Source: a virus
Strand: one strand, 5' to 3'
Length of the DNA: 64,000 nucleotides
Virus record (IMG/VR): IMGVR_UViG_3300047160_007578
Location: 66,263 to 130,262 of that record
Part shown: piece by piece, positions 1,143 to 59,784 of the stretch
Numbering within the stretch: position 1 is the first letter of the stretch
Layout of the letters: every line of letters begins with the position of its first letter
Notes under the pieces: generated by a model
Seen by the model: only the letters and a program-made list of their open reading frames with translations
Told to the model about the DNA's origin: nothing
Database searches by the model: none
Translations under genes and position numbers: made by a program

Positions 1143-1249
1143 CACTAACTACTTGGTTCCCACTCCTTGGATGGTTACGCTTCTTCGTTTGGTTCCCACT
1201 GGCTGGTTGGTTACACCATGGTCTTGGTTCTCTCGGCTCGATCGGTTTA
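1143..1249 (-). repeat. TIGR-like dual-repeat array A (3 units)
   Basis: Plus strand alternates TGGTTCCCAC/TGGTTCTCTC (1154, 1190, 1225) with TGGTTACRC (1172, 1208), separated by unique 8-9 nt spacers; intergenic. Confidence 0.8.
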
Positions 1250-1823: not shown

Positions 1824-1858
1824 CGCAACCACAATGGTTCTCACGCTCGGGGTGGTTA
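1824..1858 (-). repeat. TIGR-like single unit B
   Basis: Minus strand TAACCA-CCCCGAGC-GTGAGAACCA-TTGTGGTT-GCG, just downstream of a promoter. Confidence 0.7.
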
Positions 1859-8855: not shown

Positions 8856-9287
8856 TTATGGCACTGGCCAATACATTGGAATATCGTTGGGATCGTCCCA
8901 GCCAAGACCTTTTTGATACCATTCCGGATTCAACCTAATCAGATTACTCCGGTGTGACTTGTGTAATAAATCATCACCCAACCAATCAGGCGATACTGCA
9001 TCCATATATTCAGTAGTGATTATTAATCGTAGGAAGTCGCTCAAGTGATCATCCTTGACATGGCGGTTTTTGCATTCTTTGCAAATCTGGATAGCGTAAC
9101 GTAACAGTGACGCACGGAAACCCCTCCACATCTTCGTGGCCGGATGGTATTTCCAGGTCGTGGTACGACCATCCAGTGTATTGATTATCGACATACAGTT
9201 GACCCGCTGCGCTTTCAATCGCGTCAGGTCCAATGAAAGTGCCGATAGCTCGAAACACGGATACGGGAGATACGTTTGGAGCGACAT
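8856..9287 (-). CDS. pyrimidine-dimer DNA glycosylase / DenV-like (MSMEG_6728-type) protein
   Basis: QTYLPYP...LD..RL.KQR-like N terminus, WKYHPATKMWRG, HKSHRSNL. Confidence 0.8.
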   Translation of the reverse strand: MSLQTYLPYPCFELSALSLDLTRLKAQRVNCMSIINTLDGRTTTWKYHPATKMWRGFRASLLRYAIQICKECKNRHVKDDHLSDFLRLIITTEYMDAVSPDWLGDDLLHKSHRSNLIRLNPEWYQKGLGWDDPNDIPMYWPVP

Positions 9288-10037: not shown

Positions 10038-10060
10038 GATTAATAATCCTTTCCGCTGGT

Positions 10061-10261
10061 TCAGGCGTAGGGGCCATCAGCGTGCCAGGTGGCGCCGCAC
10101 AGCGTGCAACGAACGGCTTGACTTGAGGTACGTCCCTCTGGGCCGTCGTCGATCTGAAACATCACGCCGCCCCTTTGATGGCATTTACGGCACGGTTCTT
10201 CCGGTAATGAACCCCAATCACCAGTGTTGGCGTCATACTCTTTCTTTTGTTGTTCAGGCAC
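10061..10261 (-). CDS. small zinc-ribbon protein
   Basis: CRKC...CTLC pairs. Confidence 0.6.
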   Translation of the reverse strand: MPEQQKKEYDANTGDWGSLPEEPCRKCHQRGGVMFQIDDGPEGRTSSQAVRCTLCGATWHADGPYA

Positions 10262-10279
10262 GATTAATAATCCTTTCGG

Positions 10280-10558
10280 TTAATTGGGCGAATCCGGTGC
10301 TTGATAAGCTCGTCCAGTGATCGGATCAATTTCAATATCGATTTCATCTGGATCGTACTCAATATATACATCGGGATGCAACTGTAATTGCTCCATTATC
10401 ATATCCTTTGGATTCTTGTCCCCTGTATATCGAATGTATTCGTAGGTTTTATTTTGCGGAAGTTCTGGATCGAGCCACGCTCCTGTGATTTTTAATCCAT
10501 TCACGAGAATGAAGCCACGAACTTCCTCGTTGAGAATGATCGCATAAGCCTTTTCCAT
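10280..10558 (-). CDS. hypothetical protein
   Basis: 92-aa ORF, first gene after the promoter cassette. Confidence 0.7.
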   Translation of the reverse strand: MEKAYAIILNEEVRGFILVNGLKITGAWLDPELPQNKTYEYIRYTGDKNPKDMIMEQLQLHPDVYIEYDPDEIDIEIDPITGRAYQAPDSPN

Positions 10559-10583
10559 GATTAATAATCCCTCCGATCAGCCC

Positions 10584-10701
10584 AGATTAATCAAATCTTT
10601 CTAGCGGTCGGCGCGCAGCGCTCCGCTACTATAGTGTAACATACTTTTTTCGTCATGTCAAGAGGAATTTTTCCCCGCCTCTGGAAAGATTTGATTAATC
10701 T
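10584..10701 (-). promoter_or_regulatory. second copy of the inverted-repeat-bracketed sigma70 promoter cassette
   Basis: TTGACA(10661-10656)-17 nt-TACACT(10638-10633); same flanks and CTCCGCTACTATAG core as 1880-1996. Confidence 0.85.
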
Positions 10702-11245
10702 CACCCTGCCCAAAGGTTTTTAGGACAAAGAACTCTCGTATTGTGAATCGCGTAATTGGATACGTTGTGCCGTTCGGATCATAAATCATACCGCGTTCCC
10801 AAGCAACAGCATGTTCGTTACCGTTCTCAGTCGTGCCGACCAAGACACCACGGTTTGCGATTACTAATCTTTCTAGGACTTCATTATCAACAACCGTAGA
10901 ATATATTCCTTTCTTTATTTTTTCGATTGTATTCATCGCCTCCATATAATCGCTCTCAACAAGGCCAGCGGTGATCCGCATGAATTCTTCTTCCAGATCA
11001 ATGATCACACTTTGTGGATTAAGTTCAAAATGAATCGCAGCCCATCCGCGGACAAACGCGAACATGATTATTTCTTGTGGGTGAAACGCTCGCCGACATT
11101 TCGGCTCTGGTAAATCTGGCCATATTATTTCCGAACCATCGTGCCCAATGTACGTGAGTATTTCTCCCACTGGTATATTCATCGCCATAGCGAAAGCCGT
11201 GGGAAGACATGACCAGCGATTCGGTTGGATTTGACTATTAATCAT
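10658..11245 (-). CDS. papain-like / C39-type cysteine peptidase
   Basis: Q....SCLPTAFAM catalytic Cys region, HAVAW and YDP. Confidence 0.7.
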   Translation of the reverse strand: MINSQIQPNRWSCLPTAFAMAMNIPVGEILTYIGHDGSEIIWPDLPEPKCRRAFHPQEIIMFAFVRGWAAIHFELNPQSVIIDLEEEFMRITAGLVESDYMEAMNTIEKIKKGIYSTVVDNEVLERLVIANRGVLVGTTENGNEHAVAWERGMIYDPNGTTYPITRFTIREFFVLKTFGQGEINQIFPEAGKNSS

Positions 11246-11505: not shown

Positions 11506-11613
11506 TGTTCACACCGTCTTTGGTTCTCGCAACATGGTGGATACGCGTAGATGGTGGTTCTCTCTACTCCTTCGGATACACCCACATAATGGTTCTCACG
11601 GCGATCAAGGCTA
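11506..11613 (-). repeat. TIGR-like dual-repeat array C (3 units)
   Basis: Plus strand TGGTTCTCNC at 11521, 11555, 11590 alternating with YGGATACRC at 11538, 11573; spacers 7-8 nt. Confidence 0.8.
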
Positions 11614-21609: not shown

Positions 21610-21863
21610 TATTTTGGCCCTCCGTTCTTTACCATTTCAATCGTATCAATGCCGAACGCGGCTTTCATGAATCGACTCGCGGCACGATTGGCGGCGACAC
21701 GCTCCATGCCTTCGTCAACAGAACACATCGCGATATTGCAGTGCCACGACCACGCATAGGCGGGATCATCGGCGAACACTTTGCTGAGCACCGCAAGAGC
21801 TTCTTTCGGAGTGTTCATTTTAATAGATTCCTGATCAATAATCATTCCGGAAAATTGAGACAC
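21609..21863 (-). CDS. hypothetical phage protein
   Basis: DPAYAWSWHCNIAM conserved-looking motif. Confidence 0.65.
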   Translation of the reverse strand: MSQFSGMIIDQESIKMNTPKEALAVLSKVFADDPAYAWSWHCNIAMCSVDEGMERVAANRAASRFMKAAFGIDTIEMVKNGGPK

Positions 21864-22330
21864 GCAAACTCGCCAAAATATTTCTTTGCCGCCCTGTCGT
21901 AAGCTCTCGCTGCTTCCTCTTCAGTATTAAAGGAACCCAGATATTTTGACTTACCGTTAAGTCGAATCTGAGCACACCATGTTCCACTTTTCTTGTAGTA
22001 ATGAACACCTTTATAATCGCTATATTTCTTTCTACTTTGTGCTCTTCGATTTTGACAAGTATGAGCAGTTGTAGCTTCTCTCAGATTTTCTCGCGTACAG
22101 TTAAAAGGCTGTTGATCTTTATGATCAATATCTTTTTCTTTTGACAATCTCATTCTGTTCGCGATAAATCGGTGCAGATACTGCTTTCGATATTTTCCAT
22201 CAATTTTTATATCGCGAAAAGCATAACCTTTACCATTACTGTGCCAAAGAAAAGCCTTAACAGCTACTTCGTCTTCAACACTAACATAATGAAAATCATC
22301 ACCTGTTACAGAAATACGAGCAACAGTCAT
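21842..22330 (-). CDS. HNH-AP2 homing endonuclease
   Basis: LHRFI, IDHKD...N.RENLR, and AP2 domain YKGV...W.AQI...YLGSF.TEEEAARAYD. Confidence 0.9.
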   Translation of the reverse strand: MTVARISVTGDDFHYVSVEDEVAVKAFLWHSNGKGYAFRDIKIDGKYRKQYLHRFIANRMRLSKEKDIDHKDQQPFNCTRENLREATTAHTCQNRRAQSRKKYSDYKGVHYYKKSGTWCAQIRLNGKSKYLGSFNTEEEAARAYDRAAKKYFGEFACLNFPE

Positions 22331-24390
22331 ATTGCACGCTCATACTCAATTTCCACTTTATTCATTACTGTTTGAAGTTGTCCGAGACTCATGTTCATCA
22401 GATTAATCTTACGAATATGACTTTCCAACACAACTTCATCTTGCGGTAAATGCACCAAGTCTATTATTTGACAGCCACGATTGTGATCTGCTCCAGGACG
22501 ATGTATTCGATCAATTGCTTGCGCTCTATCTTCAGCGCGAAACGAATTAGAGTAGAATACTTCAGCCGACGAAGCTGTTAAATTTAGCCCCATTCCACCT
22601 GCCCCAGGATTACCAACAAAAACTACCTTAGGAAAATCATTCGTATTATCAAATAGTTGGAGCATCCGAACTCCAAACTCTTTCGTAATCACTACTTCCA
22701 TTTTAGTCATAATATCAGGACTTGCCCACCAACCACGACCATCCAATCTAATAACAGACCAACCATTTTTAATACACGTATCAACATTACGGTCAACGCT
22801 ATCGGAAAATGCGGCCCAGATTATAAATCGTCCTTCGTCTGAAAATTGATCAAGCAAATCAGCAATGACCTGATCCTTCGGGCATTCGACGCGAGTAGCA
22901 ATGCGAGAGTAATGAACAACCGTGCCCTTCTTTCCGCATTGGGGACAGTCGATTTCCTTTTCACCGATATTGAGTGGTTCTTCCTTGTAGCCAGTTACGA
23001 TGTTCTTTTCTTCGTCCCATATTGCTCGATGACCGCGAGCCAGCGATTCACCATCCAGAGGATTGGTCGGATCATCCAAATCGACGTTCATTTTGATTAT
23101 TAATCGTCCCTCACAGGTCGGGCAAGTTTCCTCGCCATCGGGGACTTCCTGATATTGGAAACCATCAGATAATTCGCGATTAAGAGTCAGTGCCTTGATT
23201 GCGGAACGTGCCGTTTTCGTTATCAGATTGGAAGCCCGCAACACACTCGGTGTTGGCTTGCACTTGATTATCTTGAATACTTTTTCCGGCAAGTCCAATA
23301 GGTCTTTCTTGAACTTGACCAGTACCAGACCCTTCAATCGTTCGTACAGATACGCAACTTCGTTTACTGATTTCTGGTATGGATGATACCATGACTCGCA
23401 CATATTAATGTGATCGTGGTCGGGATCGTCCTGGAACTTCCCGCATACTTTACATTTATTTTCATCGTCCCACCAGGTAACGAGTTTCGGAAAGCTCCCG
23501 CCGGTGGAACTCTCGTATTGTTTGATCAGCGCGAGTCGATTTTTGAACTTAACCAGATTCCCTTCCTTTAGAAATCCCGGACAAGCTATCTCACATAACG
23601 ACCACCAGTCCGATGGGTCTTTCGGTGCTGGCGTGCCAGTCATCAGAATGATTAATGATTCGCGACCATATAGATGACGCATCCTATCAGCGATGATTTG
23701 AATTGCCTGAGTCCGCTGAGCAGTAGGAGTCTTGAGCCGACTTGCCTCGTCGCACACTAGAACCCGCGGCAGAATGATTTGATCGAGCTTATCTACAAAT
23801 GACCGTATTGCCTCGTAGGTAAAGAACAGTGGCACTGTCCCAGCTTGCCACTTGACGAATTCATATTTCACCGAATCCAACGCAGATCGCGGTCCAGCCC
23901 ACATACATTCTTCGGGCTTGAATCGCAGGACGTTTATTGCGTACTCAAGCGCTTCAATAGACGCCAGAGTCTTACCAACACCCATTTCCTCAGCAACAAT
24001 GCAATGTCGCCGAGTTAGCTCGAATGCCGTCGTTTCGACTTGATGGTTGTACGGTGGCGGATTAGTTCGGTAGGAATTATATTCGACCAGTGGCGTGTCA
24101 TATGGGGCATACGGGTTCAACCCCATCAGATACGCTAACTGGAAATGATTGCGAGGAGTGTCACTGACTACCCAAACCTTGCGTGGCTTCTCTTCATCGA
24201 AACCGAGCCAGCGTGCTCCCTCCATCGCTTTGACTTCATCTTTCAATCTGGCGTTGAAACCAAATTGGATTAATAATCGAGAATAGCCGTGAATCTGTTC
24301 GCGAACTATCACGGCTGGCATCGTTCGCGTCCGTCCGTCAGAGACATACTGAAAACGAACATGCCCTGTCGGAATGTTAATAAGTGGCAT
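22327..24390 (-). CDS. SNF2-family helicase
   Basis: EMGVGKT, DEAS, MTGTP, GMGLNL and QAIDRIHR; CxxC insertions. Confidence 0.92.
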   Translation of the reverse strand: MPLINIPTGHVRFQYVSDGRTRTMPAVIVREQIHGYSRLLIQFGFNARLKDEVKAMEGARWLGFDEEKPRKVWVVSDTPRNHFQLAYLMGLNPYAPYDTPLVEYNSYRTNPPPYNHQVETTAFELTRRHCIVAEEMGVGKTLASIEALEYAINVLRFKPEECMWAGPRSALDSVKYEFVKWQAGTVPLFFTYEAIRSFVDKLDQIILPRVLVCDEASRLKTPTAQRTQAIQIIADRMRHLYGRESLIILMTGTPAPKDPSDWWSLCEIACPGFLKEGNLVKFKNRLALIKQYESSTGGSFPKLVTWWDDENKCKVCGKFQDDPDHDHINMCESWYHPYQKSVNEVAYLYERLKGLVLVKFKKDLLDLPEKVFKIIKCKPTPSVLRASNLITKTARSAIKALTLNRELSDGFQYQEVPDGEETCPTCEGRLIIKMNVDLDDPTNPLDGESLARGHRAIWDEEKNIVTGYKEEPLNIGEKEIDCPQCGKKGTVVHYSRIATRVECPKDQVIADLLDQFSDEGRFIIWAAFSDSVDRNVDTCIKNGWSVIRLDGRGWWASPDIMTKMEVVITKEFGVRMLQLFDNTNDFPKVVFVGNPGAGGMGLNLTASSAEVFYSNSFRAEDRAQAIDRIHRPGADHNRGCQIIDLVHLPQDEVVLESHIRKINLMNMSLGQLQTVMNKVEIEYERAI

Positions 24391-24672: not shown

Positions 24673-24731
24673 TAGAATTATGATCTTTAATTGTGATCTA
24701 GAATTATGATCTAGAATTATGATCTTTAATC
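24673..24731. repeat. 13-bp tandem repeat (TAGAATTATGATC-like, about 4.5 copies)
   Basis: TAGAATTATGATC TTTAATTGTGATC TAGAATTATGATC TAGAATTATGATC TTTAATC. Confidence 0.8.
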
Positions 24732-24811
24732 AAACAAACGCCTCTTCCCTGTCCCTGCTTCGCGGCGTTTTCACTGGCTGTGTAATAGCACGAATACAGT
24801 TGCAATACTAA

Positions 24812-24851
24812 GGCCCACTGCTATGGGTATCGCTACCCATAGCAGTGGACC
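24812..24851 (-). terminator. strong hairpin after the Gly-rich peptide gene
   Basis: CCACTGCTATGGGTA-tcgc-TACCCATAGCAGTGG perfect stem. Confidence 0.6.
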
Positions 24852-24856
24852 GGCCA

Positions 24857-25069
24857 CTAACGGCAGCGACCGCCGGAACAGCCACCCCCATAGGAGAAGC
24901 CACCCGCGTAGGCGAAACCGCCCGCGTAGCCGCCACCGCACCCGCCACCGTAAACGACGGCGTGTCCACCACCGCGCCGGCCGCCGCCTCGACAGCCCCG
25001 AGCGTCCACGGTCTCCACGAAAAGCACAGAGCCAATAAGTGCAACGAGAGCCAAAGCCAGGAATCGCAT
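24857..25069 (-). CDS. secreted Gly/Cys/Arg-rich peptide
   Basis: Signal peptide MRFLALALVALIGSVLFVETVDA followed by RGCRGGG...GGGCSGGRCR; GGAG RBS. Confidence 0.65.
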   Translation of the reverse strand: MRFLALALVALIGSVLFVETVDARGCRGGGRRGGGHAVVYGGGCGGGYAGGFAYAGGFSYGGGCSGGRCR

Positions 25070-25113
25070 AGCGTGTTCTCCGCGAGTGACCAGAACGATC
25101 AATGATCACGCGA

Positions 25114-25425: not shown

Positions 25426-25955
25426 TGAATCTTCCTTTTCTCGATCAGTCTAATAGTACGGTCATTCGTGAGAATAAATTCAAGCGCCATGTATTGAGTC
25501 ATAGCGGCATCTTCCAATCGACCATAGGCCAATGTTCCAAATTCGCGGACTTCAAATGATTGACCATTGGAGCAGCAATTAAGTAATGCGGATCGCCATT
25601 CATGCAACGTGCCCGATACTATTGAGATTCGGAAGTTCTCCAGACATGACTTCGCTGCCGTGAAGTGAAGTCTGGAACGATTAATAATCTCTAAGAGTGC
25701 CGCATCCGTGCAGACCAGAATGAATGAAACATGAACGTGAACCAACAAATGATTTGCAGCTTCAAACGGTTCACTGCCGGGCGTATCAATTTCTTTCAGA
25801 GCGACGATGAAATCAGACAACGATTTCGTGGGCGTGATCCAACGCGCATTCAATTGCTCAAGAGGGTTTCGCTTGAGAACGTCAGAGACTTCTCTCAAAA
25901 AGGTATCCCAATCAACTTGTGTTTGTGCTATCGGTATTAGGCGGATCATAGTCAA
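25422..25955 (-). CDS. degenerate ThyX-like protein
   Basis: LVHVHVSF..., IVSGTLHEW...EVRE pattern echoes ThyX without the RHR...S.R catalytic motif. Confidence 0.4.
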   Translation of the reverse strand: MTMIRLIPIAQTQVDWDTFLREVSDVLKRNPLEQLNARWITPTKSLSDFIVALKEIDTPGSEPFEAANHLLVHVHVSFILVCTDAALLEIINRSRLHFTAAKSCLENFRISIVSGTLHEWRSALLNCCSNGQSFEVREFGTLAYGRLEDAAMTQYMALEFILTNDRTIRLIEKRKIQ

Positions 25956-26098
25956 GCCTTATTCTCGGCAATGGGCATTGAAGCGTGTCGCCGTTTCTGA
26001 CAACGACACCATCCATGTGAACTGTTCCGTTACCGTCATCGACAGCCGTGTAAATCTCGCGGTGTCCTTCTCGTCGAGTCACGACTACTTCAACTTCA

Positions 26099-26347
26099 CA
26101 CTCTTCCATTGGTTCGCACTCACAGCGGGGTTGAACAGGCTGTTTGGTTCACGCGTGGAATGTGACTTCACACCCGACTGCTGGTTCTCGCAACGGATAA
26201 GGCTACGCGCATCGTCATCGGTTCTCACCATGTGCATGACTACACGTTTGACTTGGTTCCCGCACACTGCATGGCTGCACACTTCCATTGTTTCTCGCGA
26301 AGAAGGTGGCTACGCTCGGTACCTGGTTCTCGCCGCGGGTCTGTTTA
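26099..26347 (-). repeat. TIGR-like dual-repeat array D (7 units)
   Basis: Seven TGGTTCNCRC-type repeats alternating with six TGRCTACRC-type repeats; spacers mostly 8 nt (two of 10); period 35-37. Confidence 0.88.
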
Positions 26348-26536
26348 CTTCTTTTTCTTCTTGGCCATGCCTTTGAGCGTCTTGGCCAAGTTGCATCGTT
26401 TCTGCGTGGTGCCCGACAGGTTGCCCTGGGCACAGAACTCGCTGATCGACATTCCGGCTGCAGCTGCTTGTCGCGTGAGTGCTCCCGGATTTTTGATCGC
26501 CTTCTGGATGAACTTCTTGGCCTTCTTTTTCGCCAT
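26345..26536 (-). CDS. small Lys-rich basic protein
   Basis: MAKKKAKKFIQKAIKNPGAL...LAKTLKGMAKKKKK. Confidence 0.75.
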   Translation of the reverse strand: MAKKKAKKFIQKAIKNPGALTRQAAAAGMSISEFCAQGNLSGTTQKRCNLAKTLKGMAKKKKK

Positions 26537-26542
26537 GACAAA

Positions 26543-26577
26543 CCCCTTACCTTTGGTTCGCACGCAGTCATTGGGTT
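26543..26577 (-). repeat. TIGR-like single unit E
   Basis: Minus strand AACCCA-ATGACTGC-GTGCGAACCA-AAGGTAAG-GGG. Confidence 0.6.
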
Positions 26578-26599
26578 TGATTAAAAATCCAATCAAAGG

Positions 26600-26626
26600 G
26601 GTGCCCGGTCATTGCTGACCGGGCAC
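26600..26626 (-). terminator. probable intrinsic terminator
   Basis: GTGCCCGGTCA/TGACCGGGCAC stem followed by CCCTTTGATT on the minus strand. Confidence 0.55.
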
Positions 26627-26663
26627 ACACGGGGCTCCCACCCACACAGGAGGGAGGCTACGA

Positions 26664-27362
26664 CTACCGGGCACGTGCGCCGTCAGCGGGAGCCGCGCCT
26701 GCCGCCTGTGCTGGCGGAAAGTCAGCGGCCTCGCGCTCGGACTCGCCCGGACTCATGAACTTCTCGGCCAACGTTTTCGCGGTATCAACGTCGAACGGTT
26801 CGATCGGCGATGCGTACGGGATGCAGACGGGAACGTGCCACTTGAATTCCTTGCTGGAAACGAGTCGCGACTTCATCGTGCCGGCGGACTTGGCGTCGAG
26901 CAGTCGCTTCATATTGCGGCCTTCCGGCCGTGCGGACTTGGAGCCGAACAGGAAAGTAGCGAAGTCCTTGACCGACGGCACCCAAATCAAGAACTGCGGG
27001 CCATAGGCGCACTTCGAGTCCTTTTCCTCGGACTCCGCCATGACCTCCTTGAACTCGGGGGACTCCGGATTGTAATACGAGTCGATCTGTTCCGTCCCGA
27101 AGCGAAGCGCCGCGAAGCGGTACGCGAGGGCATAGAACTGATACTCGTTTGATAAGGCGACGAAATCGTCCTTGTTGCGGATGAACGCGAAGTGTCCGAC
27201 GCTGATCTTGCCCTCCTGCGCGAGTGCGTTGTTGCCGCCGCAGAGCTGCACGCGGCTGAGGAACGCGGCCCGGACGAGGCCGTCGAACATCTGGTCGGAC
27301 TGAGCAGTCGCACCGAAAGTCGGCAGATTCGCGTTCGGATTCGTGGTCATTTCCTGAGCCAT
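26664..27362 (-). CDS. putative ssDNA-binding or other highly expressed replication protein
   Basis: Strong GC3 bias, beta-rich core, flexible acidic/Ala tail; function is inferred. Confidence 0.5.
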   Translation of the reverse strand: MAQEMTTNPNANLPTFGATAQSDQMFDGLVRAAFLSRVQLCGGNNALAQEGKISVGHFAFIRNKDDFVALSNEYQFYALAYRFAALRFGTEQIDSYYNPESPEFKEVMAESEEKDSKCAYGPQFLIWVPSVKDFATFLFGSKSARPEGRNMKRLLDAKSAGTMKSRLVSSKEFKWHVPVCIPYASPIEPFDVDTAKTLAEKFMSPGESEREAADFPPAQAAGAAPADGARAR

Positions 27363-27420
27363 GATCTGTACTCTCTTTCGTTGAAAATCGGTAGAGTGAA
27401 AGACATCCTGCCAGTTGATC

Positions 27421-27900
27421 CTATAAATCTTGATCATTAATCAAATCATCTTGATTGGATACTTCTATCCAATTCCCGAAATAAACACCCAACACTCCAA
27501 ACCTATTCATTTCTACAACTGTACACGGTATTGCGAATTTATTCACAGGCTTATTAGAATCATGCCAGATAAGCGTAACCAGAACATGTCGTGTCGTTCC
27601 GACTTCAGGCCACGGTATTGTCCGAACATATACTGAGCATCTTGCTCTGACCGGTGTATCAGGACGAAGCAATAATGGATCGCCCGATTCAACACACATG
27701 AACATCATATTGGTCATATCGACTTCTTCGCCGAACATATTATAGGCGACTATTGTGAATGATGAATCGCAATGATCAATAATCGCAAAATTAACGATAT
27801 TATTTTTCTGTCCCGGATGTAATAACTTTTGGAGAACACGCCGGAACCAGCTGGGGATGTTCCGGCGTGTTTCCACCGACCTGCCAGGGAGACTGCTCAA
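27421..27900 (-). CDS. hypothetical protein
   Basis: 159-aa ORF, start uncertain. Confidence 0.5.
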   Translation of the reverse strand: MSSLPGRSVETRRNIPSWFRRVLQKLLHPGQKNNIVNFAIIDHCDSSFTIVAYNMFGEEVDMTNMMFMCVESGDPLLLRPDTPVRARCSVYVRTIPWPEVGTTRHVLVTLIWHDSNKPVNKFAIPCTVVEMNRFGVLGVYFGNWIEVSNQDDLINDQDL

Positions 27901-28227
27901 TCAATCACCCACGTTGTAGTCGCCCTTGCCCGGTGAACCCGGCGCCTTGCGCGGGGTCTGACCGGACTGGCCGACCGTATCGCCGTTGTCCTTGGCCGCG
28001 CCCGGGGTCTCGAAATCCTCGTGATACAGTTCGGGATTCGGGACACCGCTGCCGACCTCGCCAGCGCCCGGAGGCGACGGGGACGCGCCGGCCGACTGAA
28101 CCGCGGGAACGTTGGAGACCGTGCGATCAAGCGTGCCGCCGATGTAGTTGCCCGTGTCGGGAGTCATAGTTATCTCGGGAAACGATTCCGGCTGTGGCAA
28201 CTTCGGGTGGGGAAGAACGCCGTCCAT
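27901..28227 (-). CDS. disordered Gly/Pro-rich protein
   Basis: AAGGA RBS and GC3-rich frame. Confidence 0.65.
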   Translation of the reverse strand: MDGVLPHPKLPQPESFPEITMTPDTGNYIGGTLDRTVSNVPAVQSAGASPSPPGAGEVGSGVPNPELYHEDFETPGAAKDNGDTVGQSGQTPRKAPGSPGKGDYNVGD

Positions 28228-28393
28228 GTTTTGGTCCTTTCTGTTGAGTTCAATATTATTTCACCGTATTGTGTTTAATCATATCCGATATTGTGATCTT
28301 TAATCAATTCTCGCCGTGGCCACCTGCCAACCATTAACTACCCAGCCAACAGGTGGCCACGAGCGATTATCAAGGTCAACAGCGGACTTGTCG

Positions 28394-29515
28394 TTACTTG
28401 GCCCCGGCGGTCGCAGGGGCGGGAGCGGGCTCCTTGGCAGCCTGTGCGGCGCGTTCGGCGATCCGCTTTTCGAGTTCCTGCCGCGTCTTCTCGGCTTCGT
28501 CCTGCTTCTGCTTCGTGCGCTCGAGCGCCCGCTTGTCGCTCTCCTCCTTGCGCTTCTTCTCGCGGGCGTCGTGCTCCTGCTTCTGCACCACCTTGCTGTC
28601 CGGGTCCATATGCAGAGTCCACGCGACGCCGAGTGCGAAGGCTTCGGTCGGGTCCGTGATCTTTAATCCCTTGACGAGCAAGGGACCGATGACGGCCTTC
28701 TCGAACTCGCCCTTGACCTCGCTGAGCTTGCGGGCGTGGGCCACCGGCTGGAACTCCGGCGGCGACTCGGCGCGGCCCTTCTTGCGAGCTTCCTTGATCT
28801 CCTTGACGCGGGCGGCGACCGCGGCGGAGAACTCACCGGCGGCTTGCGTCATGGCGCGGTCGACCCAGGCCGGCTGTTCCTCCACGGGGAGCTTGGCCAG
28901 TTCGGTCGCGTTGAAGAGCTTGATGCGCGCGTCGTCCACGAGGGGCTTGATTTCCTCGTGCAGATGCTTGACCATGCCGAGCATCTTGTGAATCCAGGTA
29001 GTGGACTTGGAGAGCTTGCCCGACAACTCGGTGATCGTCATGAGCGGGTTGCGTTCGAGCAGGCGTGCGATCTGCTGCGCGTACTGGACAGGCCGCGTCT
29101 CGATCTTCTGCGCGTTGGCGATGATCTGCATTTCCTCGATACGCGCCTGATCCGCGGTCGTGATGTGTGCCGGGATTTCCTTGATGCCCGCGTCGAGCGA
29201 CGCGTTGTAGCGCTGCAGGCCGTCAATCAGGCCGTAGAGCTTAGCGCCGGGCTTCTCGGGGTCTTCGACTTCCCGGACAACAATGGGGTTGAGAACGCCG
29301 TCCTTGCGAATCGACGCGACGAGTCCGAGATAATCCTCATTCTCGCGATCGACCGGCCGAAGCGCGACCGGATTCTCGCGAATGAGTCCGATGGGAATGT
29401 ACCGCAAGGTATCGCCGTTGGCCGATGTTGCCAATGCGGGATTTTCCTTTGCCGGCGGATGCGCCGGTTCCTTTGCGGCAGGTGGAGTTTTCGTCGCTTG
29501 TTTGGTCTCAGCCAT
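28394..29515 (-). CDS. ParB-like protein with a long helical/coiled C terminus
   Basis: LVASIRKDGVLNPIVVR and IDGLQRY, HTH (TITELSGKLSKSTTWI), very high GC3. Confidence 0.85.
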   Translation of the reverse strand: MAETKQATKTPPAAKEPAHPPAKENPALATSANGDTLRYIPIGLIRENPVALRPVDRENEDYLGLVASIRKDGVLNPIVVREVEDPEKPGAKLYGLIDGLQRYNASLDAGIKEIPAHITTADQARIEEMQIIANAQKIETRPVQYAQQIARLLERNPLMTITELSGKLSKSTTWIHKMLGMVKHLHEEIKPLVDDARIKLFNATELAKLPVEEQPAWVDRAMTQAAGEFSAAVAARVKEIKEARKKGRAESPPEFQPVAHARKLSEVKGEFEKAVIGPLLVKGLKITDPTEAFALGVAWTLHMDPDSKVVQKQEHDAREKKRKEESDKRALERTKQKQDEAEKTRQELEKRIAERAAQAAKEPAPAPATAGAK

Positions 29516-29700
29516 TGATACGTACTCCCTGATAAATGATCCGGTGGACTCGACATAACTACGCCGTCAGGTCGTGTTTCACCATACATGCGCCTCTTTC
29601 CGTTCTCAATCATTTCGATTATTGATCACGTCTACCAATTCGATTATTAATCAGATATTATTGTTCGCCCCACCGAATCATCAACGATTAATAATCCCCA

Positions 29701-30089
29701 GCGATTAATAATCACGGAACCGACTCAGAACCCAACGTGGGTAGGGGGCTACTCCGGAGGGAGCACAGAGTCGGTCCCGTGATTATTAATCGCGGACCGG
29801 TCAGGGTCAGCTACGTGTGGTAGACTTACGACCCTGAAACCGGTCCAGCGATTAATAAACACCTAAGCGATTAATAATCAGCCGAGTGGACTTGGCACAT
29901 GCGTTCCCGTCCAACCATCGTGCGGTCCACTCGGCTGCCCCTTTGATCAGCCGAGTCTTTCGAGTCCGTGGCTCTGCGTACGTCACAGGCACAATCAACT
30001 CGGCTGAATGCCAAAAAGATTTTTAATCAGTCGAGGGCGACCGTGAGGACTTGACAGGAGGCGGTCAACCACTCGACTGATTAAAAATC
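29701..30089 (-). ncRNA. cluster of five bulged RNA hairpins in the leader of the ParB-like gene
   Basis: Stems at 29701-29793, 29794-29846, 29878-29937, 29947-30007, 30018-30089; plus-strand A.C mismatches become G.U pairs on the minus strand. Confidence 0.6.
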
Positions 30090-30095
30090 AAAAGG

Positions 30096-30220
30096 CCGAA
30101 TTAATCAAATCTTTCCAGCGGTCGGGCCAAAACTCCCCATATACCTATGCAACGGCAAAAACGGGCGGATTGTGCCAAACTTTTTCCGCCCGATTCGCGG
30201 GAAAGATTTGATTAATTCGG
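30096..30220 (-). promoter_or_regulatory. third inverted-repeat-bracketed cassette (putative leftward promoter)
   Basis: 21-bp perfect IR CCGAATTAATCAAATCTTTCC / GGAAAGATTTGATTAATTCGG. Confidence 0.7.
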
Positions 30221-30383
30221 TCCGCGCCAACGGCGCAAGTGTACAAATGTCAAGAGCTACGTATAGTGTTCTTTTTAGTTGACCGTTAGAGAGTCTAAAA
30301 CAAAAAAGTCATATATCATTAAGGGCGCTTGCACTTACGTAAGGCTATACTCCAGTCCAGTCCGAAAACGCACAAAAAAATTA

Positions 30384-30462
30384 TTGACACAAACCGGCGG
30401 ATTTTGCCGTGACATAGGTATGGGGAGTGAGATTGACCGCCTCTGGAAAGATTTGATTAATT
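30384..30462 (+). promoter_or_regulatory. putative rightward promoter homologous to the leftward cassette
   Basis: TTGACACAA...TTTTGCCGTGACATAGGTATGGGGAG followed by GGAAAGATTTGATTAATT. Confidence 0.6.
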
Positions 30463-30563
30463 TCACTTTCTCTATTTCCGCGTGCCCGTTTTTGATTAAT
30501 AATCATTCTGATCCAAGAGCATAGCTCTAATTGATTATTGATCAGAAACTAGGAGATTCAAGG

Positions 30564-44900: not shown

Positions 44901-45765
44901 CTTGATTTAATACATTTACTCCAGCTGCAGCATCCCCTCCTTGAGACGTAAGAGCTTGTTGATACAAACCAGCAGCTTGTGTAGGAGAGATACCATACTG
45001 TTCTGAAACACCAGTTACTTCTCTCCTAACCGCTCCCGGTGTTTGACCGGTGACATTGGCAACTTGTTGTAGTTTTATTGAAAACTCTTGTGCTTGAGTG
45101 ATCCCTTCACGCATCAAGCTAATAAGTGCGGATATTGCACGTCTAACAAGCATTGATTGAACAGTTCGAGCTATACCTGCCCAACCAATAGTGAATTGTT
45201 GTTCTGCTTGTGTAGAAGCACTACCAACGCCTAATATTGCACGAGCAAGACTTTGCATCTGTGGAGTCATACTTGGAATTGTTTGAGCAAAGGCTTTCAT
45301 ATTAGTTTTGGCTTCAGTCATCATTTGCTGGAATTGTGCCGCTGATACACCAGACTGAGCAAAAACACGTTGAAGATTAGTAATCGAATTAGTGTATGAT
45401 GCTACATTTTGAATATTGGCACCAGATGGCATCGGAAATATTTTCGATACGTCAGCCGTAGCTGCTCTAGCAGCGGCTGCTTGTAATTCAAGGAATTGTT
45501 GCTTCATTGCTTTTGCAGTATTAGTAACTTTTACACCTGCTTGTTCAACACCTTGGGCAGTTATTTCAAAAGTTCTTGTTATTTTCTGGCCTGTTGAACT
45601 CATTTGTTCAACAACGCCCATAAAAGCTTCATTGGCCTTATTATACTCCATCGTTTTATTGACAAAATCTCCTACAACTTTACCAGAATTGATAAGCATC
45701 TGGTTAAATTGATCCATCCCGGATTGTGCGCCTGATGTATCGGCGCCGATCGTGATGTTCGGCAT
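41950..45765 (-). CDS. tape measure protein
   Basis: About 1270 aa, helical and Ala/Gln-rich, C-terminal YAEGG...GTDNIPAWLTAGEFVV. Confidence 0.9.
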   Translation of the reverse strand: MPNITIGADTSGAQSGMDQFNQMLINSGKVVGDFVNKTMEYNKANEAFMGVVEQMSSTGQKITRTFEITAQGVEQAGVKVTNTAKAMKQQFLELQAAAARAATADVSKIFPMPSGANIQNVASYTNSITNLQRVFAQSGVSAAQFQQMMTEAKTNMKAFAQTIPSMTPQMQSLARAILGVGSASTQAEQQFTIGWAGIARTVQSMLVRRAISALISLMREGITQAQEFSIKLQQVANVTGQTPGAVRREVTGVSEQYGISPTQAAGLYQQALTSQGGDAAAGVNVLNQAMMLGRATGLEYNAALRLTTASMDAFHLSANDAGRVVNVLAAAQSRSRIPLEQLQASIGRVGPAAKAMGVDFEQVVAAFITIQSQGGRASESMNRIQQVLGAFERPGKAMQQWMQSLGVVNAQSLMNAFGGQLPAVLEKLNQDAERTPELMSEIGGSLRTFIGFLSLGGQNTEKFRLELEKLYNTDPSKLAQNFEKVDQTVGAQWEKFAQRIKNFFAEDIVSGPLKLINMALDSIFNNPQWENAQKIAREGRTAAEQIRAGGRAEVRDYEQKVRQHFEPDLAGARELIKLSNQVRDDAINDHKRMAQSWLITTQSFTDTLRSALSEVRREIAKNTSEIDASMKRAQNFAEQARAALFQERFGAIQDPYQKQVAIQQRMQELQQEQSAIEQKAAAEKRILNDAEISEINKMFQERLKLSIQFFKEEDAGLTQNLQHWTQYLNQIGQQAHDAYAKTLPPGAQMGAYQPIVAKYSPNMTQDQQRQEAINQLIEQQARWEKQIQEARRQRNIELEKEKSIQTQNLKLVEQAFRNIEKFSMFDEKGNMLRRYREAEARQGPGGGRALAAADLEKLAKAARDAIDVANERLPTEKQISSREVSQVVTQKAAALAAETAAVDRANQASSRLLQLEESMKKIIEEGTDAINKRIEAQVQLKLAQTQMGVTLAEIRGRMQKVHDVSEINVGQIPFGSAARQSAEDWNAYVKAQQNAEQALARMSTKEGQTAENALLLRTAMSELMQTLAKLKDASSWGDWVSRIFGGVEFTGNLQTALGNIDREVTNKAINPQRQARIVDDAIQKISTAQSPLEALQQIGQPAQQMRAGFEGAAVAMPHITQELEKSQKLTAQINQDIINTVTSINQMRGLSTPAPGFIGPLEPGQIAPGRYAEGGPVSGPRGTDNIPAWLTAGEFVVNADSTRRFYTQLLSINSGRQPRYFAGGGLVTVGDINVNVSGGDTSERTIREIAQGINTELRRGTVRFQTLQDAQ

Positions 45766-53436: not shown

Positions 53437-56400
53437 TTAGATTATTCTAACACCTTCCATTTCAATCGAAACCTCATATCTTTCACCTTCGTTATCGTAC
53501 TTTGCTCGCGCTGAAAATTCAATGGGATTCGCCGTGAACATCACCTTCCACGTTTCTCCTTGCCAATTTTGCATATCTATCAGATTCGCAATATTGTTGC
53601 TGACAAACGATTCTAACCTAAGTGCCATCGGTCGACCAACTGTGAACTTGTATTGCAATTTCCGTAGACTGTTCTTTTTGGTGTAAGTGTACAATACATT
53701 AGTCATAGATCGTTTCGGTAATACTTTCTGTAACATTGCTTCGCTGTCGCCAAAATCAGGAGTGGGTAATATAATTGATTGTCCAGTCAACGGTGCTGCA
53801 AGAGATACAAATGGACACATTGCTCTCTTAATAAGAACCACATTGAGTTCTGGAATCATTATGGCATTATTACCGTTGTACAATTGTTGCAGATACCCAC
53901 CAACAAGATTAAGATGTTCAGAAATATCCCGAGTGAAAGTCCTAGGAATTAACTCAAGCGATTCGGTTAATACTAAAGTCTCTTGTATTTGATTAATGAT
54001 CACTCGATTATAAGTTCTAGTTTCCGTGAACGTGAAATGTTCACTGATATTTTCTGGCTTACTATTATCAGGTGACGTTACTTCCGAAAATGCAAATGAT
54101 TCATGAATTGTGCGTGTAAATGTTTCTGTAACGAGTCCTTGTCCAGCAGCAACAATTGGACTAAGGAAAGCACGCCCACGACCGTTTCCATCGCCAGTAG
54201 CAAAAGCTACAATTGCAGATAATGTAGCATTACCAACACCAATATTACTTCGAATATCACCAAAGCCTGCTAATTGTATCGCTTGTAATCTTGCAGCCCC
54301 ATGAGGTATTACTGGTTCAAATGCATAGCAAGTGATACGTTTAAGTATCGCATTACCAGTTCCAATTACAGCGATATCACCGGTATTACTTGAGACAATT
54401 TGACCAAGCGTAGCTGCGCCTTTACCGGCTTGTGTATGTCCGACACCGGCAGCAATTATTGATCGTAAATGAGCATTGCCAATTCCTATTACACTAACAT
54501 CACCTGTACTACTTGCAGTAATCGGATGGAAACTAGCAGCAGCAGTACCGATGACACCTATTGAACCTACGCACGAGCTAACATAAATGGCTCCAAACGT
54601 TCCGCGCGAACCAATACCACCATGAGCAGACGCTGTAATATATGCTAATTGTGCTGCACCGGTCCCGATAAGTGATATATCACCAGTTCCTACTGTAACT
54701 TTTATTGGTTGTAATGTACCGCGACCCCATCGAACTCCTGTATTACCATAGGCAATCGCTGTGATGGCACTAAGTGTTGCTGCACCAATTCCGCTGGTAG
54801 GTGTTTGACCGCGAACAGTATCAGATGTAACTGGAGCGTCAGCAAAATGCCTATATGCTATAAGATGAGCAGTTATTGTATCATAAGTATAAGGCGAATC
54901 AGGAAATTGTTGTCTAAGTAGAATTTGATGAATAGTAAATGTATCGGAAATTGTTGGATTATCACTGAATTGAGCAGATGTAGACACTGCTCGAACAAAG
55001 GTATCAGCAGTGCTCGGCGAATCGATTAATGATCTTTCTAACGTTTCAGCAATAGTGAACATATCAGATGTGCTAGGCGTATCACTGAACTGAACGATAT
55101 TTCCAATGTTGATTGTGAATACATCAGACGTTGACGGACTATCATCAAATGTTACATTTATAGCAGACGTGACTACAACGAATGCATCGGATGTACTCGG
55201 TGCATCGCTGAATTGTGCAGATGTAGAGACTGACCGGACAAATGAATCCGTTGTTGAAGGACTGTCTGCTACTGTTCGGTATAAGATCGTGTTTTGAACA
55301 AATAAATCGACTGTACTTGGAACGTCAGAGAATGTTCGGGATTGAATCGTATATTGTATAAATGAATCAACTGTACTTGGAGCATCAGAGAATGTTCGAG
55401 ATTGAATTGTAGTTTGAACAAAGGAATCGACCGTACTCGGAGTATCAGCGGCTTCAACTCTAGATTCGCTAGCAACTTCACCAAACCAATCTCCTACTGT
55501 GCTTGGAGCATCGGAGAATGTTCGTTGCAATTGAAGAGTTCGATTAAATGAATCAACCGTACTTGGAGTATCAGCAGCTTCAACTCTAGATTCACTGGAG
55601 ACTTCACCGAACCAATCTCCAGTTGTAGATGGAGCATCTGCTATTGTTCGTTGCAATTGAAGAGTTCGATTGAATGAATCAACTGTACTTGGGGTATCGA
55701 CAAATGTTCGAGACTGATTAGTAATCACTACAAACGAATCAACTGTACTTGGCGTATCAGAGAACGTTCGGTGATAAATTGCATTTTGGACAAATGAATC
55801 AACTGTACTTGGAGTATCAGAGAATGATCGCGGTTGAAGTGTACTTTCAACAAACGAATCAACTGTACTTGGAGTATCTGCTATTGTTCGCTGTAATTGA
55901 AGAATTCGATTAAACGAATCGACTGTACTTGGTGTATCAGAGAACGTTCCTACTTGATTCGTTTGGTTTGTAAAATTATCAGTTGTGCTTGGAGTATCAG
56001 TAAAAGTTACGTGTTCACTAATCTTCCGAGTAAACGCGTCTGTAGTAGTTGGAGCGTCTGTAAGAGTTCGGAATCGATTAATAGTCCGAGTGAATGCATC
56101 TGTAGTAGTTGGAGCATCTGCTATCGTTCGATGTATTTGGCCGATTCGATTCCACGTATCAGCTTGCGGTGTAGGAGGAGCAAGACCAAGAACAACGTTG
56201 CCAAGATAACTTCTAACTATGCCTAATTGTGCGGTATATACGAGCGTAGTAGGAGCATCTACAAACACTCGCTGCAATTGTTCAATACGGATAAACGAAT
56301 CGGATGTTATTGGAGCATCTGCTATTGTTCGATAATAAGTCGCACCTTGAGCAAATGAATCAGTTGTTACTGGTGCATCGGCTATTGTTCGATAGTAGGA

Positions 56401-56784
56401 ACCATTTACTATGAACGAATCTGAGGTACTTGGCGCATCTGTGAATGTTCGATATTGAATCGTATTTTCTACAAATGAGTCTAAAGTATTTGGAGCATCT
56501 GCTATTGTTCGCAGTGATTGAAGTACCCGATTAAATGAATCAGTTGTTACTGGTGCATCGGCTATTGTTTGCAAAAACGTTCGTGTTAATATATCAGAAG
56601 TACTTGGACTATCAGCAAAAGACCGATATAAACTGATACCTCGAACAAATGTGTCGGCTGTCGCTGGTGTATCAGTAAAGGATCGATTCTTGACAACGAA
56701 TTGAGTAAATACGTCGCACAAGATTATAGGATAAAGTGGTGTAGATATTGGAGTAAAAGATATAGGACCGTATGAGATTGGCAT
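53437..56784 (-). CDS. repeat-rich virion fibre/structural protein
   Basis: About 30 20-aa repeats RT(I/F)(A/S)D.P.T.D.F, then G.A.L..I repeats and the shared C domain. Confidence 0.75.
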   Translation of the reverse strand: MPISYGPISFTPISTPLYPIILCDVFTQFVVKNRSFTDTPATADTFVRGISLYRSFADSPSTSDILTRTFLQTIADAPVTTDSFNRVLQSLRTIADAPNTLDSFVENTIQYRTFTDAPSTSDSFIVNGSYYRTIADAPVTTDSFAQGATYYRTIADAPITSDSFIRIEQLQRVFVDAPTTLVYTAQLGIVRSYLGNVVLGLAPPTPQADTWNRIGQIHRTIADAPTTTDAFTRTINRFRTLTDAPTTTDAFTRKISEHVTFTDTPSTTDNFTNQTNQVGTFSDTPSTVDSFNRILQLQRTIADTPSTVDSFVESTLQPRSFSDTPSTVDSFVQNAIYHRTFSDTPSTVDSFVVITNQSRTFVDTPSTVDSFNRTLQLQRTIADAPSTTGDWFGEVSSESRVEAADTPSTVDSFNRTLQLQRTFSDAPSTVGDWFGEVASESRVEAADTPSTVDSFVQTTIQSRTFSDAPSTVDSFIQYTIQSRTFSDVPSTVDLFVQNTILYRTVADSPSTTDSFVRSVSTSAQFSDAPSTSDAFVVVTSAINVTFDDSPSTSDVFTINIGNIVQFSDTPSTSDMFTIAETLERSLIDSPSTADTFVRAVSTSAQFSDNPTISDTFTIHQILLRQQFPDSPYTYDTITAHLIAYRHFADAPVTSDTVRGQTPTSGIGAATLSAITAIAYGNTGVRWGRGTLQPIKVTVGTGDISLIGTGAAQLAYITASAHGGIGSRGTFGAIYVSSCVGSIGVIGTAAASFHPITASSTGDVSVIGIGNAHLRSIIAAGVGHTQAGKGAATLGQIVSSNTGDIAVIGTGNAILKRITCYAFEPVIPHGAARLQAIQLAGFGDIRSNIGVGNATLSAIVAFATGDGNGRGRAFLSPIVAAGQGLVTETFTRTIHESFAFSEVTSPDNSKPENISEHFTFTETRTYNRVIINQIQETLVLTESLELIPRTFTRDISEHLNLVGGYLQQLYNGNNAIMIPELNVVLIKRAMCPFVSLAAPLTGQSIILPTPDFGDSEAMLQKVLPKRSMTNVLYTYTKKNSLRKLQYKFTVGRPMALRLESFVSNNIANLIDMQNWQGETWKVMFTANPIEFSARAKYDNEGERYEVSIEMEGVRII
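54830..56690 (-). repeat. 60-bp coding tandem repeats
   Basis: Recurrent GAATCAACTGTACTTGG.GTATC at 60-bp period, clearest at 55300-55950. Confidence 0.85.
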
Positions 56785-56818
56785 TATCTGTGTTCCTTAA
56801 ATGATTATTAATCCTTTC

Positions 56819-57010: not shown

Positions 57011-58378
57011 TTACAGACTTGCCTGTGTCACTATTGCCGCACCACCTGCAGTACCAGCGGTACCAGAAACAGTTGTTCCGTTATTTCCTGCTCCACCTAC
57101 TGTTATAGTAACCGTATTTTTGCTCAAATTAATCAAGGTTATTCTACCACCATCGCCAGAAGCACCACCTTGACCGCCGGTCGCTGTTGTAGCAGTGGAT
57201 GAGGCGTTAGCACCATTACCACCAGCCCCACTCGAAGTATCGAAGCAATTGGTAGCTGTCGTACCTAACAGTGCTTGATAAGCAACATAAATCCAACCGC
57301 CACCACCACCACCCCCTCCAGCGCCTCCACCAAAATTTCCCGAAGTCGCGTTTGTGGACCCGTTGCCACCTGTTCCACCTTTTGCTACAATAGCACCTGC
57401 TGCCGTAGACCCTGAACGATTAATAATCCGAGCGTAAATTGCGACAATCCCACCCCCGACACCGCCTCCGCCACTTGCTCCACCAACAACAGCACCACTG
57501 CCGCCGGCTGCTCCACCGCTACTGCCACCAACACCACCAGAAATATACACATTACCAAAAATTAAACTGTCATCATATCTTCGCATCGGTGCAATGGTTA
57601 TTGTGCCAACAACACCACCGGCACCACCGGCGTTTGTTGAAGACCCACCTTGACCGCCATTGCCGCCGCGACCTCCATTATAAAAACCTGGTATCGAAGC
57701 AGCTACTCCAGCACCACCAACACCTGTTCCTGCATTTACACCAGCAGCGCCACTTCCACCCCCGCCGACACTGTTGATTGCAGTTGCAGAATAATTTGCA
57801 GCTGCGCCACCATTTGGTTGAGCAGCATTATTTCCATTGTAAACGGATACTTGTATTGCACCAGCTTGAGCAGCTGATATATCAAGTACATCACTGACAA
57901 ATATGCTCCAACCGTTTGTGTTAATATATCCAGTTCCAGAAATTGTAAGATTTCGACAATACAAATCAGCCGTTAAAGTTAACGCACTGCCTGAAGATGT
58001 AATCGTAACATCAGTATTATTATTACCATCACCAAAAAAGAACAAGTCTAATGCATTAATTTCTGTCGAATCAGCTACAAAATCAACGTATTTCATTTCC
58101 GGACCGAAATTAATAAGATTATTAGAATTACTACTTGCAACCACAACGTCTCTAGTAAGAGTAGTATTACCTGGACTATTATAAGTATAAGTTCCTGTAC
58201 CAACTTCATAAGGTCCTATTGGTTTCCCAGCAGTATCAACCATATAAATTATATACTTTACTCTCCCACTTGTGTTTACAAATGAAAACGGTATAAAACC
58301 AGAAGAAAATGATGCTAATGTAAGTGAACCTGTTCCCCCACTTGTGGTATATTCTCTTGTCCAATTGCTAAAAATCAT
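57011..58378 (-). CDS. glycine-rich tail fibre-like protein 3
   Basis: RE.TTSGTG.L.L N terminus, EVG.GTY and poly-Gly repeats. Confidence 0.75.
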   Translation of the reverse strand: MIFSNWTREYTTSGGTGSLTLASFSSGFIPFSFVNTSGRVKYIIYMVDTAGKPIGPYEVGTGTYTYNSPGNTTLTRDVVVASSNSNNLINFGPEMKYVDFVADSTEINALDLFFFGDGNNNTDVTITSSGSALTLTADLYCRNLTISGTGYINTNGWSIFVSDVLDISAAQAGAIQVSVYNGNNAAQPNGGAAANYSATAINSVGGGGSGAAGVNAGTGVGGAGVAASIPGFYNGGRGGNGGQGGSSTNAGGAGGVVGTITIAPMRRYDDSLIFGNVYISGGVGGSSGGAAGGSGAVVGGASGGGGVGGGIVAIYARIINRSGSTAAGAIVAKGGTGGNGSTNATSGNFGGGAGGGGGGGGWIYVAYQALLGTTATNCFDTSSGAGGNGANASSTATTATGGQGGASGDGGRITLINLSKNTVTITVGGAGNNGTTVSGTAGTAGGAAIVTQASL

Positions 58379-58387
58379 ATTCGACTC

Positions 58388-59758: not shown

Positions 59759-59784
59759 ATCTTATCTCCCTCTAAGATTATTAA

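Follow-up and report, generated by a model that had tools for sequence, protein, structure and literature searches.

We propose that a run of short alternating repeats on the minus strand of a soil phage genome is, with good probability, a dual-repeat TIGR array belonging to the phage's own TIGR-TasA system. The window analysed here (64 kb) is the second half of this genome, which is an IMG/VR virus record of 130,262 bp; coordinates refer to the window unless marked as genome positions. Arrays of this kind are already known, having been published in 2025, and what is new is the distance of the array from tasA together with the scattered layout of which it forms a part.

TIGR-Tas systems were first described in 2025 (Faure et al., Science; PMC12045711). 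According to the accessible portions of that paper, TIGR arrays consist of two alternating repeats of 8-12 nt with spacers of ~9 nt (range 8-12) in units of ~36 nt, and both repeats begin with UG (box D) and end in CCA (box C), the motifs covarying between the edge and the loop repeat. The same portions describe arrays that open and close with edge repeats, in some cases truncated, that give guides of ~36 nt cut in the middle of the edge repeat, and that adjoin tas and are followed by a rho-independent terminator. Each guide of the SpTIGR array carries 16 nt of variable sequence, corresponding to 8-nt spacers (PMC12045711, accessible text).

The array described here has seven edge repeats of 10 nt (consensus GYGNGAACCA, with variants ending in AACA or CCG) in strict alternation with six loop repeats, which are GYGYAGYCA-like and 8-11 nt long (Table 1). 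Two short spacers occupy each unit, all of 8 nt except for two of 9 nt, and the edge-to-edge periods are 35, 35, 35, 37, 37 and 35 nt. Both repeat types start with YG and end in CCA, in the array as well as in 20 units near tasA, and the array terminates on both sides in a full edge-type repeat. The initial annotation had counted seven units and given the repeats as GYGAGAACCA and GYGTAGYCA. Its seven edge repeats are indeed present, but they bound only six complete edge-to-edge units with partial units on either side, and its two repeat types of 10 and 9 nt hold with a looser consensus and a more variable loop length. The trailing partial unit doubles as the first codons of a 65-aa gene, the ATG of which (26109) directly follows the end of the last edge repeat (26110). 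No terminator-like site was detected 3′ of the array, where this gene begins at once, and no sigma-70-like promoter was found 5′ of it. An Rfam search of the array gave no match, and Tandem Repeats Finder did not report it, which is expected since ~50% of each unit is variable.

Table 1 Coordinates of the array, related repeats and neighbouring genes (window positions unless marked otherwise; a minus sign denotes the minus strand).
Feature	Position	Strand	Remarks
Core TIGR array	26110..26333	-	7 edge repeats, 6 loop repeats, 12 spacers of 8-9 nt
Edge repeats 1-4	26333-26324, 26298-26289, 26263-26254, 26228-26219	-	
Edge repeats 5-7	26191-26182, 26154-26145, 26119-26110	-	
Loop repeats 1-3	26315-26307, 26280-26272, 26245-26237	-	
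Loop repeats 4-6	26210-26201, 26173-26163, 26136-26129	-	all three degenerate
Leading remnant	26334..26347	-	stop codon of upstream gene, ACA-ending repeat-like stub, one 8-nt spacer-like stretch; weak, read from the sequence
Trailing partial unit	26085..26109	-	8-nt spacer-like stretch, degenerate loop-like 9 nt, 8 nt
Solitary edge-type repeat	26554..26563	-	leader of the lysine-rich gene; match to outside-trained model 26554-26574, E 0.88, weak
Solitary edge-type repeat	1836..1845	-	model match 1835-1858, E 0.023
Mini-array	1154..1234	-	3 edge and 2 loop repeats, 2 units; model E 3.1e-9 and 9.2e-5
Mini-array	11521..11599	-	3 edge and 2 loop repeats, 2 units; model E 3.4e-7 and 0.053
65-aa protein gene	25912..26109	-	conserved in sister lineage, mostly third-position changes
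63-aa lysine-rich protein gene	26345..26536	-	directly upstream of array; conserved in sister lineage
Hairpin	26601..26626	-	G+C-rich, 11 pairs, then weak T run; terminator-like
257-aa protein gene	26664..27437	-	95% identical in sister lineage
tasA	genome 57888-58958 (L029:7888-8958)	-	356 aa; ~33 kb from array, outside window
Arrays flanking tasA	genome 57680-57871 and 58966-59413		same repeats as the array
TIGR arrays of G004	8939-9206, 45032-45336, 55565-56800 of G004	same strand	37-nt period

The repeats are far from random in their distribution over the genome. A chain finder that requires at least three consecutive repeat-like sites spaced 17-19 nt apart, run on both strands of the 130-kb genome, returned 13 arrays comprising 56 repeats, all on the minus strand; the plus strand gave none, and each of 20 block shuffles was likewise free of arrays. 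In the genome as a whole, YGNGAACCA as a strict word has 47 minus-strand and 5 plus-strand occurrences. We also built a sequence model from 20 units, every one of them outside the window. In the 64-kb window it gave 13 matches at E<=1 (12 on the minus strand), five of them within 26145-26333, the best of which (26289-26333) reached 26.8 bits and E 3.6e-7. Units 2-6 scored low (E 0.011 to 0.44), in part because adjoining units share an edge, which leaves partial matches. An alternating two-repeat array with ~8-nt spacers and a 35-37-nt period, as initially annotated, is thus confirmed by its coordinates, by the chain finder and by the outside-trained model. Altogether the genome holds at least 13 mini-arrays of 1-6 units each, spread over 37 kb on one strand only, all located between genes and co-oriented with the genes around them. 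As a source of guides, the phage offers 28 clean units. The other arrays cluster at genome positions 55.7-68.1 kb. Two mini-arrays in the window lie close to start codons, the one at 1154..1234 ending 23 nt and the one at 11521..11599 ending 15 nt before an ATG.

Across this genome the 10-nt repeat opens 12 of the 13 arrays and closes 11. Given the published rule that TIGR arrays open and close with edge repeats, these counts identify the 10-nt repeat as the edge and the 9-nt repeat as the loop, and processing would therefore be expected within the 10-nt repeat. This reverses the earlier proposal of cutting in the 9-nt repeat.

Two further sequence elements recur in the genome. A perfect sigma-70 consensus promoter (TTGACA, 17 nt, TATAAT) is present in two minus-strand copies, at genome ~55630 and ~62820 (L029 ~5630 and ~12820), each inside a shared stretch of ~30 nt just downstream of a mini-array. 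For the palindrome GAT(C/T)N2-4(A/T)AATC, typically TGATTATTAATCA, scans of the 130-kb genome counted 171 occurrences on the minus and 200 on the plus strand, whereas 50 shuffles averaged 6.5 with a maximum of 14. It often separates a Shine-Dalgarno-like AGGA from the start codon, in the form AAAGGATTATTAATC with ATG after it, and is also found within genes (window examples at 10048-10869, 26589, 29627-29879 and 30028-30543). As GATTWWTAATC it stands 10-14 nt after some edge repeats, and we considered it there as a long-loop variant of the loop repeat; with 171-200 occurrences throughout the genome, the palindrome is too widespread for this reading, which was rejected.

The protein partner of the array was reached via the repeats, after a six-frame search of the whole genome with the Pfam Nop model had given no candidate. 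The gene so located is flanked on both sides by arrays with the same repeats and encodes a 356-aa protein, for which Pfam reports only a weak, below-threshold match to Transposase_20 (E 0.0084) and neither an HNH nor a RuvC domain. Among PDB sequences it is closest to 9MTY chain A (E 0.0011), which is the TasR-tigRNA-DNA structure of the original TIGR-Tas report, as far as the accessible text of that paper shows (PMC12045711). An AlphaFold2 model based on a 58-sequence alignment is all helical with a mean pLDDT of 92.3, and in a Foldseek search of the PDB the top ten chains were all TIGR-Tas proteins (9MTY TasR, E 2.6e-4; TasH 9W04, 9VZX, 9W02, 9W03 and 21KL among the top matches), followed by the IS110 recombinases IS621 and ISCro4. 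A profile of the family likewise matched 9MTY (E 1.5e-24), SpTasH (E 4.9e-8) and IS621 (E 4.1e-7) among PDB sequences. Since this Nop-domain protein has no HNH or RuvC nuclease domain, we assign it to TasA. The Nop-domain Tas partner anticipated by the initial annotation is therefore encoded in the same genome, but it is a nuclease-free TasA and lies ~33 kb from the array instead of next to it. Together with the alternating repeats, their YG...CCA ends and the two ~8-nt spacers per unit, its presence bears out the TIGR reading.

The C-terminal loop of TasA carries a putative processing site. In the profile alignment F317 and H331 of TasA correspond to Y289 and H296 of SpTasH, residues that are reported to process pre-tigRNA in the accessible parts of two sources (PMC13421893; bioRxiv 10.64898/2026.09.09.750476). 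All 58 sequences have H331. Position 317 is more variable, with Y in 44 of them, F in 9 (including this TasA) and W in 5, and TaTasR also carries Trp at the matching position. Relative to SpTasH, the TasA lineage has a 7-residue insertion in this loop. At least 606 TasA homologues were found, many of which carry PF02371, and 537 IMG/VR loci contain such a homologue. Among the 80 loci that were fetched, 50 have arrays with a period of 34-39 nt no further than 6 kb from the gene, and example loci show repeat words similar to those of this phage. At tasA itself an edge-type repeat separates the ribosome-binding site from the start codon and shares one base with the ATG, and this repeat is a possible autoregulatory site.

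By analogy with the published family, the array would be transcribed together with the surrounding minus-strand operon, and TasA dimers would bind the YG/CCA motifs of both edge and loop repeats. The C-terminal loop of TasA would cleave the precursor within its 10-nt edge repeats, with His331 taking the part of the catalytic His296 of SpTasH, and the resulting RNAs of ~35 nt could pair through spacer A with one DNA strand and through spacer B with an adjacent stretch of the other. As TasA is devoid of a nuclease domain, binding and blocking of the target is expected rather than cutting, so that the complex may impede transcription or replication of a gene of the host or of a rival element. In E. 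coli reporter assays TasA and dead TasR repress in a reversible, RNA-guided manner, according to the accessible text of the TIGRFinder preprint (Xu et al., bioRxiv 10.64898/2026.09.09.750476), and sequence-specific DNA binding that blocks transcription would similarly be expected here. Those repressor tests involved MbTasA and a stem-loop TasR, whereas the protein described here is known from its sequence and predicted fold.

Searches for targets gave results at control level. With up to 3 mismatches allowed, the two real spacer arrangements had 40 and 35 matches in the phage's own genome versus 38 and 33 for control arrangements, and in 1.1 Mb of fetched viral loci matches did not exceed those of control arrangements. 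One exact 15-nt match was found in these loci (L066), which we do not consider significant because ~0.1 such matches are expected by chance. In large collections, tens to hundreds of 16-nt target matches would arise by chance alone, and the accessible text of the preprint likewise states that short spacers lead to many false target matches (bioRxiv 10.64898/2026.09.09.750476).

To compare the array among relatives, we used records fetched with the 257-aa neighbour, comprising one IMG/VR contig (L110) and four metagenome contigs. L110 is collinear with genome positions 108490-91693 at 85-88% identity and represents a sister lineage. The flanks of the array are 87.7% and 86.4% identical between the lineages, and the alignment breaks exactly over window positions 26345-26098, where 248 nt here correspond to 152 nt in the sister lineage. 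The sister array has four edge repeats, as against seven here, and seven spacers, or eight with the opening 8 nt of the gene downstream included. Three of its spacers recur in the window, partly in different order, and the edge core GAACC(A/G) is retained. Two edge-type repeats stand at the site of the solitary repeat 26554..26563, and 9 nt are absent, in frame, from the region matching 26085..26109. This agrees with the earlier expectation that relatives would keep the repeats and vary the spacers: both spacers and unit number differ between flanks that are 86-88% identical. In the five related records the window array is unchanged in one and the other array is present in four; the unchanged one, L113, is an independent metagenome contig with an identical window haplotype. 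There are two stable array haplotypes and not a continuum, and since only these two were seen, turnover rests on one lineage pair.

Additional relatives were sought by sequence similarity and by repeat pattern. An IMG/VR scan for the repeat pattern returned 27 loci, among which an array was present only in the sister contig L011 (= L001 = L110), and the others were dismissed as single chance matches. In contigs from four soil-metagenome DNA runs the array itself was covered by identical pieces, and a single divergent contig agreed with its flanks without matching the array. This divergent contig is probably the sister lineage and does not count as independent support. In GenBank phages no match was found to the 2.1-kb region (blastn) or to the DNA polymerase (tblastn). 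By eye, several of the spacers located after an edge repeat have ATG at their start and look like the opening 8 nt of the 65-aa gene downstream (window 26085-26333, L110:18470-18620), and one window spacer equals the start of this gene in the sister lineage. There are hints that array units arise by duplication of the array end and not by capture of foreign DNA.

The array fills the space separating two small genes, both conserved in the sister lineage. The upstream one encodes the 63-aa lysine-rich protein, which has only weak matches (DUF7267, E 0.0065; phrog_20603, E 1.2e-4; MbpA, E 6.8e-4) and is separated by the terminator-like hairpin from the gene of the 257-aa protein. The latter belongs to no known family and has no PDB sequence match; it had been considered as a Tas candidate and was dropped after TasA was found. 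Window positions 26000-30000 have a G+C content of 54-59%, compared with 44-50% on either side, and hold a ParB-like gene (28394-29515), three genes of no assigned family and the array. This block may be an acquired module. A link between Tas and ParB was rejected, as none of nine proteins encoded around the array, including both ParB-like ones, had a tblastn match within 6 kb of tasA in the 80 related loci. Further along the window, an HNH-AP2 homing-endonuclease-like gene (21842-22330, minus strand; AP2 E 1.5e-11, phrog_99 E 4.3e-36) lies directly downstream of an SNF2 helicase gene (22327-24390), and a 13-nt tandem repeat of 4.1 copies (24673-24725) adjoins a low-complexity region rich in Gly and Arg (24771-25109) in which several frames are open. 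Tandem repeats of 60, 120 and 126 nt with TRF scores of up to 425 are present at 55286-56511, and many 9-nt CCACCNNNN-type repeats at 57600-60330; these are probably repetitive structural-protein genes.

The architecture shared with TIGR arrays would also be inherited by a decaying satellite copy, that is, a descendant of a TIGR array that no longer gives working guides and was left over after spreading by recombination into an intergenic gap. Such decay would fit the degenerate repeats, the irregular loop lengths, the periods of up to 37 nt and the low model scores of units 2-6, as well as the distance from tasA and the lack of a terminator or promoter of the array's own, and the likeness of several spacers (by eye) to one another and to the downstream gene start suggests internal duplication. 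We nevertheless judge it unlikely, given that tasA is intact, that both lineages have retained an alternating array with preserved box-like ends at this site despite ~13% flank divergence, that the window haplotype recurs unaltered in the independent contig L113, and that the low later scores are in part an artefact of shared edges. The repeats could also act mainly in cis, as sites at which TasA binds and cuts polycistronic mRNAs and thereby separates cistrons or controls translation of the next gene, instead of or in addition to supplying trans-acting guides. The placement of at least 13 mini-arrays between co-oriented genes over 37 kb points in this direction, as do the edge repeats that abut or overlap the start codons of the 65-aa gene and of tasA and the short distances of 15 and 23 nt to an ATG at two other window arrays; moreover, the accessible text of the TIGRFinder preprint raises the idea that tigRNA maturation and Tas translation are linked for intragenic arrays (bioRxiv 10.64898/2026.09.09.750476). 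However, intergenic gaps are where non-coding arrays fit in a densely packed phage genome, and a purely cis function has no need of variable spacers, which makes this explanation quite improbable in our view.

Explanations without TIGR-Tas fare worse against the same data. The short, direct repeats at 17-18 bp spacing resemble iterons or centromere-like sites acting at the DNA level, which could serve the ParB-like protein encoded 2 kb upstream of the array or the lysine-rich protein, itself weakly similar to mobilisation and DNA-binding proteins. This is very hard to reconcile with the presence of the same two repeat types, with the box motifs of the family, on both sides of tasA, with their strict alternation and their extreme strand bias relative to transcription (47 vs 5), and with the failure of any of the nine neighbouring proteins to recur near tasA in the related loci; we accord it a very small probability. 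The notion that the stretch encodes protein has virtually none. Two frames are open in the window, a 67-aa ORF (26085-26288) and an antisense 189-aa ORF (25807-26376). The sister lineage, however, has stops in all three forward frames within the array and one in the antisense frame corresponding to the open one, no family match was obtained, and a 35-37-nt period does not preserve a reading frame. The forward-frame stops show that the 67-aa ORF is not conserved at codon level, as the initial annotation had required of a non-coding array.

Among known systems, the TIGR array proposed here is most readily compared with dual-repeat TIGR-TasA, for instance FpTIGR of Flavonifractor plautii. It shares with this group the alternating edge and loop repeats in the 8-12-nt range with UG-type starts and CCA ends, the two short spacers per ~36-nt unit, the solo nuclease-free Nop-domain effector and the phage host. 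It differs in being ~33 kb from tasA as one of at least 13 short scattered arrays, and in its 8-nt spacers, its 35-37-nt units, its partly degenerate repeats and the absence of a terminator after it. The 8-nt spacers are similar to those of SpTIGR. SpTasH (Salicola phage CGphi29; PDB 9W03/9W04) and TaTasR (9MTY) have the Nop-domain fold and a C-terminal loop bearing the His that is catalytic in SpTasH in common with the TasA described here, which, unlike them, is without HNH or RuvC and, unlike SpTasH, has Phe in place of the catalytic Tyr289 and the 7-residue loop insertion. As in CRISPR, a repeat-spacer array would be processed into guides and the unit content differs between related genomes; in contrast to CRISPR, the array has two types of repeat and 8-9-nt spacers that would work in pairs on opposite strands, its effector is a Nop-domain protein, and no acquisition machinery is known. 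VIPR with solo vrRNAs (Lopez et al., bioRxiv 10.64898/2026.10.15.759431), to judge from the accessible part of that preprint, resembles the present case in its phage-borne guides that silence rivals and in loci separable from the effector gene. Its GGYNN repeats and pseudoknot tail represent another RNA architecture with another protein, and identity with VIPR was set aside on account of this different RNA architecture.

Distal arrays were seen in two of four genomes examined, this phage and G004. The latter, the record of locus L044 (83 kb, 40% complete), is distantly related, its TasA being 35% identical, and its same-strand arrays are separated from tas by 2.4, 13-15 and 32 kb. In the complete relatives G002 and G003 arrays occur only within ~2 kb of tas. 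As described in the accessible text of the TIGRFinder preprint, the survey covered up to 10 kb on each side of tas (bioRxiv 10.64898/2026.09.09.750476), and an array 33 kb away would therefore not be catalogued. The words 'orphan', 'dispersed' and 'multiple arrays' have no occurrence in the portion of this preprint that was accessible, and in the full-text literature on TIGR-Tas, as far as it was accessible, we found no paper on orphan or distal arrays, those using 'orphan' appearing to be general reviews.

These results suggest that a TIGR array may be separated from its effector gene by tens of kilobases, in which case current censuses and the calling of systems as 'array-less' may be incomplete. 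The two phage lineages, with different unit sets at the same site, provide a small natural example of the gain, loss and reshuffling of units. A more far-reaching hypothesis, which we put forward as speculative and consider rather unlikely, is that in this phage, and in at least one distant relative, TIGR mini-arrays spread through the leaders and gaps of ~37 kb of co-oriented early and replication genes couple guide production to mRNA processing and translational control, including autoregulation of tasA. The edge repeats that touch or overlap start codons, that of tasA among them, make the coupling of guide maturation to gene expression a testable idea, and if TasA does cut and bind sites in polycistronic mRNAs, this would amount to a role beyond trans-acting guides that is undescribed for TIGR-Tas.
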